Source: Candidatus Nanohaloarchaea archaeon (GTDB lineage: Archaea > Nanohalarchaeota > Nanosalinia > Nanosalinales > Nanosalinaceae). From it: a stretch of 15,104 nt of DNA. Location of the stretch: assembly GCA_047617745.1 (NCBI GenBank), contig JBLGBN010000019.1:1-15104 (forward strand), read 5' to 3'. Below, piece by piece: positions 6,001 to 9,000 of the stretch (its first letter is position 1; each line of letters opens with the position of its first letter). A program made the position numbers.

Positions 6001-9000
6001 AGTCGGAATCGGTTACGAGGAAGATATAGAGGAAGCCAAAGAACTGGCGATCGAAACACTGGAAGAAGCAAGTACAGTTGAAGCAGATCCAGAACCACAG
6101 GTACTGGTGAACGAACTCGGAGGATCATCCGTCAACCTAAAACTGAGAGGATGGACAAAACCTTCGAAAGCAAACATGGTCAAGTCAGCTTCAGAAGTAA
6201 CACAGATCGTCAAAGAGAAATACGACGAAGCCGGAATCGACATACCATACCCAATCCGAACAATCTACATGAACAATGAGCAATAGCAGACTCAATTTAG
6301 GAGGAGGGTTTTTCAACCAAATCTATAGTCGGCAGTGATTTAGAAGTTGGATAGACACTAGGCCTAAATCCCTCTATCCGATCGCTGTCGAGGATAGAAA
6401 TTTAGATGTTGTGGCTGTGTTCGACGATACCTGCGTGCTGAACGCCGAAGTTGAGGCTTGCAGAACCGCTGGCTGCATACGAACGGGAGGGGTAGCTTAC
6501 AGTCATCTCGACTTTTTCTATAATCTGGTAGTCGAAGTATTCTTCGTAGTTTCCGGTGCTTGAATACGAATATGTATTATTTGTAGTAGTTATCTGGACG
6601 CTATCAATGATCGCGTTCGTAGATTTACTGATTTCGACTCGGAATCCAGTTCCAGGGAATGTCTTATCAACTGTTCTGGTGATAGTTTGACCGTCATCCA
6701 CATTTATTTGGATTGTGGTTCCGGCGGTGTGCCAGTCCCAACCAACATTTTGACTCGCAGTCTCCGTCTGGCTTGCACCAAGTTCGCCAGGGGATTTTCC
6801 TTGTAACGTGTCCGCATCGTCCGCGTTCGGAACGTCTGCGTTATTGTTAACCCAGTTCTGGATGTCGGAAAAGTCCTGACCGTCAATTTGGTCTGCATTT
6901 AGTCCAGAGGTCTGTATTTGGTTGCTTGGTATTTGTTGTTGGTTGGTGTTCCAGATGGTGGTTCCGTTGTCGACTATGTCTTGGTTGTTGACGTTGTTTC
7001 CGTTGGATAAAACTTCTGAGAGAGTGGAGGATCCTCCGCCGGTGTTTTGGTTTACTGAGAACCATGATGTTCCAAGTGATGAGAACGCTAAACCACCAGC
7101 ACCTAAACCTGCCAACTTCAGGAATTTTCGTCTATCAATTTTGTTGTCCGTTTCCGAATTTTTCTGTTTCAGTTCTCTCTTCTCCTGTTCGAGTTTTTCT
7201 ACCTTCTTCTTCAGTTTCCTCGTCTTTTCCTCTACTTTCTGTTCTATCAGTTCGTCGATTTTTCCTTCATCCATGCTGGCTAATTAACCGGATTGAATTT
7301 AAACTTTAGTGTACCCAGTCCTTATTTCTAAGATGATGTAGTAGAAGAGTTGGGATAATAGTGGGCCAGACGGGATTTGAACCCGCGACGGCTAGGTTAA
7401 GAGCCTAGTGCTCTGCCAGACTGAGCTACCGGCCCGCATTACTCAGTCTGGTTGGAAATTCTTTTTAACCCAATCTATTCGAGCAATCTGTCTATATCTA
7501 TTTCTCCAACTATTTCTTCTACCGGCTGTAGGAGATCTTTCTTGGGTTCGGAGCCCATAAGTTTGTGGTAGGTAACTGTCAGATGGTAGGGTTCTTCCTC
7601 TCCCGCAATTGCTCTTACATTCAAAGCAGATTCATTCCGGTTTTCTCCATTGTAAATATCCACATATGTCAGGTCGCCTATATCTCTGGTTTCGGAGATC
7701 TCTAGGTCTTTCAGCTGGTTGTATTCGGAGTCTCCAATAGTTCTGGAGAGTTGATTTGAGGAGTCTCTACTGCTATATGTATCATTTTTGTCTCTGGCTA
7801 CTGCCATCTATATAGACCTCGATAATTTTCTACCGGTTTTGAGTTATGGTGCCGTGTTTTGATGTTGTAGTTTTGTTTCATGTTATCAACCTCGAAGAAT
7901 TATTCAGAAAGTGAAGTGAGGTCGACCTTTGGAAATCAAATGGTCGACATAATAATAGCGATAGAAATAGCTCCAGCCATAATAATTCTAGAATTATTTT
8001 GAAGTGCTGAAGCCATATCAACTAATCGCGGATTAGAATTTATAAAATTGATTAGAATCTGATGCTCTTTCTAGGTGCTGCTTTATCGATGTCCGGTTCC
8101 ACGAGTTTGTATTCGTGGTCTTTTATGTCGGCAAACCTTCCGCATGATGGGCATCGATCGTAGCCATTATGGTTTGGATCGTTTACTGTTTCGTTGTATC
8201 CGCATGCGCATTCAAGCTGTGTATCCATAGGATCTACATCGAGATCAATCCTCTCCAGAAGGGTTCCCTGTGAGAAATAGTTGAAAAGTTTCTCGAAGAG
8301 CTCTGGTTCACATAGATGATTGTTGATCTTGACATGAGCAGAGCCGTTAGTCGAAACTCTCGAGAGTTCCTGCATCACTTCAATCAGGACATTTCCTAGT
8401 TTCTTCATTTGTTATCTTGCCGACCGTTTTTAATCTCTCCCCTTGTAGTCCCCCGACTATATTATTATAGACATCATCAACCTTATTTAAACTAACGGAT
8501 CATCGATCTCGTTCCTTGGAATGTTTACGCGATCCCTAAAAATGATTATGTCTCCTTTAAACGCTCTGTCTGGATTAAAGATTTATTTTAGAGCCATTTA
8601 AATGTCATAAAGTGTTAAGATCGCTTTGTAGTTTTTGAACCCTATTTTAAGCTATCTAGACGAATTCTAAGAATTATCCTGTTAGAATAGCGGGGGGTAG
8701 ATTTGAACTACCGACCTCCGGGTTATGAGCCCGACGAGCACTCCTGGCTGCTCCACCCCGCTATGGATGTATAACTATTTAGGTTAGGTGAAGCTTTTAA
8801 ACTCCAGCTGTCTGCCAATCCATAAAACTGTCTGTGGGAAAAACGGTTCTATGACTAAAGTTCTGGGGATAGATGAGGCAGGGAGAGGCCCGGTTATAGG
8901 AAGCATGTTTGTAGGCGGATTTATGGTAGAGGAAGAGAAACTGGGCGAGGTAGAGCTCCTTGGTGTTAAGGATTCGAAGAAGCTGAGTGACAGGAAAAGA

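Follow-up and report, generated by a model that had tools for sequence, protein, structure and literature searches.

The window analysed here is a 15,104-nt stretch of DNA from a Candidatus Nanohaloarchaea archaeon (source genome G000), and it carries a gene, P0001, that belongs to a nanohaloarchaeal family combining a twin-arginine signal with fibre parts that sequence comparison traces to haloviruses. We consider it probable that this family forms an accessory surface-fibre system, derived from halovirus tail-fibre parts, which is exported by the Tat translocase, fitted with tips and used to bind host surfaces. Specifically, the virion-attachment N-terminus of a viral fibre appears, on sequence grounds, to have been swapped for a charged helix and a Tat signal; three chains would then form a fibre that folds in the cytoplasm, and a minimal TatAC would export it in folded form. 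Long members such as P0001 would bear their own tip, while short members, ending in half of a docking domain, would bind a signal-less tip (one per trimer) that contributes three hairpins and hitchhikes out of the cell through Tat. Once outside, the fibre may be held on the cell by uncleaved signal helices (class III), or it may be cleaved and bound to another surface protein. By analogy with their viral relatives, the lectin-like, Gly-rich and propeller tips may attach to the surfaces of haloarchaea, modulating host range or the strength of attachment. Host recognition in DPANN archaea is an open question, for which the family offers candidate parts in the form of small, expressible proteins suited to a binding assay.

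Table. P0001 and neighbouring features in the window (positions count from the first nucleotide of the window)
Feature	Positions	Strand	Basis or remark
P0001 family gene, 290 aa, predicted one-chain fibre with Tat signal	6402..7274	-	lone insertion between mscS and tRNA-Lys
P0001 charged helical N-region, residues 1-45	7140..7274	-	helix 3-39 in AlphaFold2 model
P0001 twin-arginine motif, Gly-rich h-region and putative small-x-small cleavage site, residues 47-70	7065..7136	-	
P0001 stalk common to a subset of paralogs, residues 71-125	6900..7064	-	
P0001 stalk repeat common to viral tail fibres, residues 126-160	6795..6899	-	66% over 35 aa against L013 fibre; also in P0010-P0021
P0001 variable tip, residues about 171-284	6423..6764	-	exchanged for unrelated tips in P0002 and P0003
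P0001 C-terminal H-x-H motif	6405..6419	-	alignment
TATA-like box, -29 to -24 from P0001 start codon	7298..7303	-	read from sequence
tRNA-Lys(CTT), directly upstream of P0001	7361..7435	-	

Within the window, P0001 sits between mscS and the tRNA-Lys gene, and since these two are only 40-150 bp apart in three of four same-genus genomes (the fourth is rearranged), P0001 is a lone insertion whose upstream TATA-like box suggests a leaderless transcript of its own. The twin-arginine motif reads D-R-R-K-F-L-K (residues 47-53) and precedes a Gly-rich hydrophobic stretch; the N-region ahead of it is a candidate trimerisation helix on the cytoplasmic side. The tip is probably a beta-sandwich, and structure rows in the Atlas gave TM values of 0.45-0.57 that serve as leads only (Atlas feature matches were under 0.9 or missing). 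The first-pass annotation had described the tips as interchangeable, which holds for P0002 and P0003: both keep the first half of P0001 at 79-85% identity and carry tips unrelated to it. At the C-terminus, H286 and H288 are invariant in 12 aligned proteins, all chosen for an H-x-H ending and one of them a signal-less viral-type fibre; 10 of 151 family sequences end in this way. H-x-H motifs have a metal role in T4 fibres, and by analogy the motif of P0001 is a candidate metal clamp on a threefold axis. The AlphaFold2 monomer of P0001 was unusable (pLDDT 42.6), and a PDB sequence search found no match for P0001, the C15 member, the adapter profile or one Gly-rich tip. Elsewhere in the window, a HypA-like gene (8052-8408, Pfam E 7.5e-7) lies between two tRNA genes.

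The family was collected with a profile of 74 N-terminal positions that contains, and thus selects for, the Tat signal. It matched 370 clusters at 50% identity, and 142 of the best 150 clusters plus P0001-P0009 gave the analysed set of 151 sequences. The late twin-arginine signal (RRxFLK) noted in the first pass was recovered: R-R-x-F precedes a hydrophobic region in 150 of 151 profile matches, a count that reflects the profile's selection for it. All 150 have K at +5 together with G at +8, and the median position of the arginine pair is residue 51. Family proteins range from 75 to 1036 aa, and many mature chains would be shorter than 100 aa. All 13 matches with a named organism (of 74) are nanohaloarchaeal, and a wider GTDB scan, with no direct search of Halobacteria genomes, gave four weak bacterial signal-peptide matches among the matches listed, so that restriction of the family to nanohaloarchaea is at most weakly indicated. 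Databases name the members 'twin-arginine translocation signal domain-containing protein'.

The family signal fits the Tat consensus S/T-R-R-x-F-L-K, for which F94 and E103 of TatC are named as arginine-binding residues (PMC13673990). Nanohaloarchaeal Tat has been called likely inactive, and genes of the family have been listed as hypothetical (PMC10266531); TatC has also been described as patchy, with no cargo named in the text available (PMC9765267). The label 'likely inactive' is disfavoured by our data because the F94/E103 pattern is kept in 16 of 16 TatC sequences examined and 15 of 17 genomes have tatA close to tatC, and the family would give this translocase a cargo. For the placement of F94 and E103 we assumed the spacing of E. 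coli TatC.

It is nonetheless conceivable, if quite improbable in our judgement, that the arginine pair and hydrophobic segment form an ordinary Sec/SRP signal anchor, the Tat link then arising from a shared variable island. The N-region is unusually long, Pfam TAT_signal scores P0001 under the family cut-off (E 0.033), Sec-type adhesins occupy the same islands, and three TatC-less genomes with the family are unexplained. Such an anchor would fit poorly with the exact consensus, with a weak, Gly-rich h-region (best 18-aa hydropathy 1.2-1.4) and with the joint presence or joint absence of family and TatC within four genera.

In terms of distribution, presence was scored at E<=1e-5, which leaves out weak matches in G004 (E 7e-4) and G022 (E 7e-5). 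Of the first-pass table for 70 genomes, the entries for both (17) and for TatC only (3) stand, and those for family only and neither become 6 (not 7) and 44 (not 43). TatC occurs without the family in G042, G063 and G069; two family matches in G069 proved on inspection not to be fibres, so that 'both' is more strictly 16. A member cut by a contig edge adjoins tatAC in G047. All six family-only genomes are drafts: G032 has tatA, the contigs of G015 and G043 break inside the RNase J gene, which is near tatC in 9 of 17 loci, and G023, G035 and G052 are the three without an explanation. Members are found no more than 8 kb from tatC in 12 of 17 genomes, as first reported, where 1.4 would be expected. 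Copy number likewise spans the 1 to 29 given earlier, with 28-29 in G045 and 1-10 elsewhere. In the single-contig genome G039, tatA-tatC lies inside a run of anchor, adapter and LamG genes. As a separate observation, the tatC locus in several genomes (L015-L034) is, by eye, a hotspot for PIN-like and nucleotidyltransferase/HEPN-like pairs.

Motif conservation and co-occurrence are partly circular, given that the profile is built on the signal, a worry already raised in the first pass. The Tat link nevertheless holds with signal-free probes: a stalk probe matched 8 of 17 TatC-positive and 1 of 33 TatC-negative genomes, and the signal-less dock domain matched 6 of 17 and 1 of 33, respectively (p-values from such distributions are overstated, the 70 genomes being related). 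Among the eight single-contig genomes, four have both family and TatC and four have neither. Because half of them lack the two, the fibre system cannot be a universal attachment device.

With respect to viral origin, PHROG searches at 1e-4 matched 58 of 150 members, 26 of them to tail families, and gave no match for the other 92 or for P0001; the matches of the C6 member (tail fibre, 3e-25) and the C3 member (3e-5) were reproduced. Residues 126-160 of P0001 share 66% identity with a fibre encoded after baseplate-like genes (assigned by eye) on viral contig L013. In HGTV-1, gp29, gp31 and gp33 sit behind baseplate J and share parts with the family at 57-65% identity: the end of gp29 resembles that of the C11 member (65% over 26 aa), the start of gp33 corresponds to the dock domain of the adapter (57% over 78 aa), and the last 108 aa of gp31 match P0053 (63%), a member on a 171-kb contig of uncertain cellular status. 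On viral contig L075 a virion-type N-terminus precedes the anchor ending seen in gp29 and the C11 member, and the dock gene is present as well. P0117 matches two fibre entries with solved three-chain structures, at E 1e-7 and 5e-7, one of them named a tail fibre. Taken together with the PHROG matches, the HGTV-1 parts bear out the earlier likening of the tips to viral tail-fibre modules. The homologs with PF18573 tips mentioned in the first pass have to be set apart, as they are without the helix and Tat signal and are viral-type fibres sharing the stalk only. Pfam matched 10 of 150 members and revealed no enzyme domain, and tblastn of three tips against annotated phages gave no match. Viral LamG matches (L076-L078) were distant and are not taken as evidence.

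Viral parts, low GC3 (z <= -2) in 6 of 10 G000 members, the position of P0001 by a tRNA gene and two broken copies could be expected of provirus debris devoid of cellular function, a reading largely refuted already and, to our minds, barely credible. It is opposed by the helix-plus-signal head, for which 44 pattern matches in viral contigs yielded none that was confirmed, and by the occurrence of members as single genes among core genes: in the loci read by eye, with no hallmark-gene scan, the neighbours of members are core or surface genes and not capsid, portal, terminase or integrase genes. The divergence of the family into its many clusters and its transcription also speak against debris.

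A new feature apparent from the sequences concerns the short members, whose C-termini are half-domains and whose downstream neighbours are tip genes of the corresponding class that lack a signal. The loci examined contain 100 family ORFs that are complete (7 ORFs cut by locus ends were left out, and one weak non-family match may be included); of these, 19 end in one of four dock motifs, the classes A-D having been defined after the data were seen. Fourteen of the 19 are directly followed by a gene with the matching motif (A 6, B 4, C 2, D 2); crossed-class pairs number 0 of 14, and a dock gene follows 0 of the 81 other ends. The remaining five, including the member beside tatC in G000, are without a partner next door. 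Partner genes have neither RR nor a hydrophobic N-terminus (hydropathy <=1.15 in 13 of 14, the last having a miscalled start), as judged from sequence and hydropathy in place of a signal predictor.

The two halves appear complementary in class B. When aligned to a knob profile built from 11 in-chain domains, class-B anchors cover positions 1-22 and then stop, and class-B partners match positions 24-36, in three copies in four of five proteins and in two copies in the fifth. Class-D partners show three repeats by eye, class-C partners show no hairpin repeats, and the model of the class-A dock (adapter) contains three strand pairs (pLDDT 89). Foldseek returned no match for the adapter model in the PDB at E<=0.001, and comparison with VIA-align reached Z<=5.7 over residues 73-152 only, which does not establish the dock as a novel fold. 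Some signal-less tips have Gly-rich Pfam matches; the tips searched had no PDB or phage sequence match. The three hairpin repeats per tip suggest that one tip caps a trimer, as monomeric gp38 does on gp37, and leaves through Tat.

As the same anchor-dock pairs are present in viruses, adjacency can be inherited, and some anchors have no partner; two G000 members are, moreover, broken. These facts would be accommodated if only signal-bearing chains were exported, with virus-captured signal-less neighbours staying inside, decaying, or docking after another exit route. We hold this to be unlikely, in view of pairs that are intact in several genera, of G039, which keeps three extra stand-alone class-A tips elsewhere for one anchor, and of a signal-less dock that tracks TatC, yet with one such tip in G040, which has neither TatC nor the family. 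The hitchhiking model can be taken a step further, to a minimal Tat kept mainly to export trimeric half-domain anchors, each trimer capped by one of several interchangeable, signal-less tips that derive from viruses of the hosts, are encoded elsewhere in the genome, hitchhike through Tat and set host specificity as on those viruses; we offer this tentatively and would rate it at somewhat below an even chance.

Several arrangements near these pairs merit mention in their own right. At L021:4672-8600, three tandem members carry a WD40-like propeller between knob halves in one chain, and a small gene without a signal comes next. At L002:1950-7908, L044, L038, L023 and L040 the adapter gene is succeeded by runs of signal-less LamG genes that share short basic C-terminal tails; their proteins may dock in a chain. 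A class-B three-hairpin tail ends a 102-aa gene in two viral contigs whose proteins are not halophilic-looking (L135:578-886, L136:2815-3123); it could represent a docking module general to phages that has yet to be described.

In the source genome the ten paralogs of the first-pass annotation were recovered as P0001, eight ORFs with phmmer E-values from 2.5e-27 to 4.7e-5, and a copy interrupted by a frameshift (E 1.7e-12). Their N-regions measured 38-55 aa, in keeping with the 35-55 aa given before, and are charged helices; 'coiled coil' is a loose term for them because their hydrophobic residues recur most strongly with periods of 4 and 8 and not of 7. On C16, tatA, tatC and a member stand in a row, as described. 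The first pass noted signal-less genes behind members, though not their matched docking motifs. One of these, the Gly-rich ORF that follows the C3 member, shares 95 nt with it and seems to belong to a single gene split by a frameshift, a one-chain relative existing (45% over 92 aa). The frameshift of the C11 copy, in an A8 run, is real as far as contigs can tell: those of four of four sequencing runs bridge the site without an indel, making assembly error unlikely, although one run is possibly the assembly source and contigs drop rare variants. On these grounds two of the ten members (C11 and C3) are probably broken. The A8 run could permit phase variation, of which no variant was seen, and the frameshifted paralog (L003:2011-3043) has an endonuclease-like gene on one side and, on the other, a partial copy of that gene's 5' end.

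To call the family the dedicated substrates of Tat proved too strong. Beside nine intact family ORFs, G000 encodes 4-5 other proteins with credible twin-arginine signals, so the family makes up about two thirds of its Tat cargo. The non-family set (L009:2167-3982, L010:315-3197, L011:1503-3122) is wholly unannotated and comprises two tandem acidic helical proteins, two lipobox paralogs and one peptidase-like protein.

Our literature search, mostly of open-access text and without bioRxiv supplements, found no account of the family as Tat-exported fibres. The closest known system is the MAT fibres of Bdellovibrio, which likewise have many paralogs, a conserved cell-proximal end and swapped phage-like tips in a microbe living on microbes (PMC10769870). 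MATs are about 1000 aa long with a 130-aa beta domain after the signal peptide, and an S74 chaperone forms the C-terminus of 13 out of 21 (PMC10769870), whereas the present family spans 75-1036 aa and has a helix before its twin-arginine signal, halovirus parts and separate signal-less tips. No shared ancestry is shown, and the family is not a member of the MATs, because two defining features fail: no S74 Pfam match at E<=1e-5 was found in 150 members, and the roughly 130-aa beta domain is absent, mature N-termini falling into several short classes. If our reading is right, the fibres would be an archaeal parallel to MATs, and adhesin tips would join cofactor enzymes as Tat hitchhikers.

Other parallels concern single steps. 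In T2, T6 and S16 (gp37-gp38) and in hafunaviruses, a monomeric, often Gly-rich adhesin caps the fibre tip and sets specificity (PMC12032242, PMC8651126); the present proteins differ in being encoded by cells, behind an export signal, with a dock of three hairpins that seemingly completes a split domain and no similarity shown to the gp38 attachment domain. HGTV-1 gp29, gp31 and gp33 share anchor ending, dock domain and tip, but are viral fibres with virion-type N-termini and no RR signal, annotated as hypothetical, and the text available describes no docking for them. Such sharing suggests that, on the haloarchaea which both exploit, the symbiont relies on the receptor-binding parts that the virus uses. 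The minimal TatAC of Bacillus subtilis is likewise a two-component, operon-encoded translocase with narrow cargo, and hydrogenases show that one signal can carry a partner chain (PMC13673990). The hitchhikers in the available text of that source are cofactor enzymes, not adhesin tips, and DPANN or nanohaloarchaea are not mentioned there. Nanohaloarchaeal LamG/PKD and trimeric-autotransporter-like surface proteins share the genomic neighbourhood and proposed role (PMC10266531).

A homotrimer is indirectly suggested by three features, namely homology to fibres, the terminal H-x-H and an R-h-x-x-h-E motif. R-h-x-x-h-E is a trimer signature, and it occurs in 23 of 150 family N-regions against a shuffle mean of 3.4 and maximum of 9 (500 shuffles); P0001 has a variant in which K replaces R. 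Retention on the cell is a weak point of the model: a membrane helix in the mature part was found in 0 of 150 members, and an AxA-like site is present in 122 of 150 (small-x-small in 144 of 150, chance rates uncontrolled). A lipobox Cys was found in none of the 150. Tips of 750-1400 aa would be a large Tat cargo and count against the fibre model.

These putative cleavage sites, with no other anchor, also allow a different purpose for Tat-exported fibres: their target may be polysaccharide, mineral, biofilm matrix or other nanohaloarchaea, or they may be shed and compete with viruses for receptors. In its favour, the tips weakly resemble generic carbohydrate-binding sandwiches, four of the eight single-contig genomes lack the system, and a cultured strain, reported without TatC, still attaches (PMC10266531). 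We regard a non-host target as the less likely case, if the most serious competitor, since the nearest relatives of the fibres are found in the tails of haloarchaea-binding viruses, and Gly-rich adhesins set hafunavirus host range (PMC8651126).

As to expression, two family members are transcribed in a cultured strain. P0044 and P0052 correspond by database record to SVXNc_0796 and SVXNc_0797, with 185 and 2170 RPKM among the 12 rows consulted of Table S1 of PMC10266531, where TatC (0793) has 654, SecY 610 and the S-layer protein 3458 RPKM. In RNA data, no match was listed for the one stretch searched. The same source gives 4-7 cells per host for this TatC-positive strain, compared with 1-2 for another that lacks TatC, an anecdote from two strains. 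Finally, a second family, mostly with Sec-type signals and a two-Cys motif at its end, is in 9 of 11 cases followed after 1-55 nt by a gene of the Tat family (loci including L016:4413-4997, L018:15297-15635, L028:836-2434, L030:7754-8368, L102:3863-4210 and L103:8223-8570). It is a candidate base for cleaved fibres, none was found in G000, and the Tat-family genes that follow it mostly belong to one mature N-terminal class.
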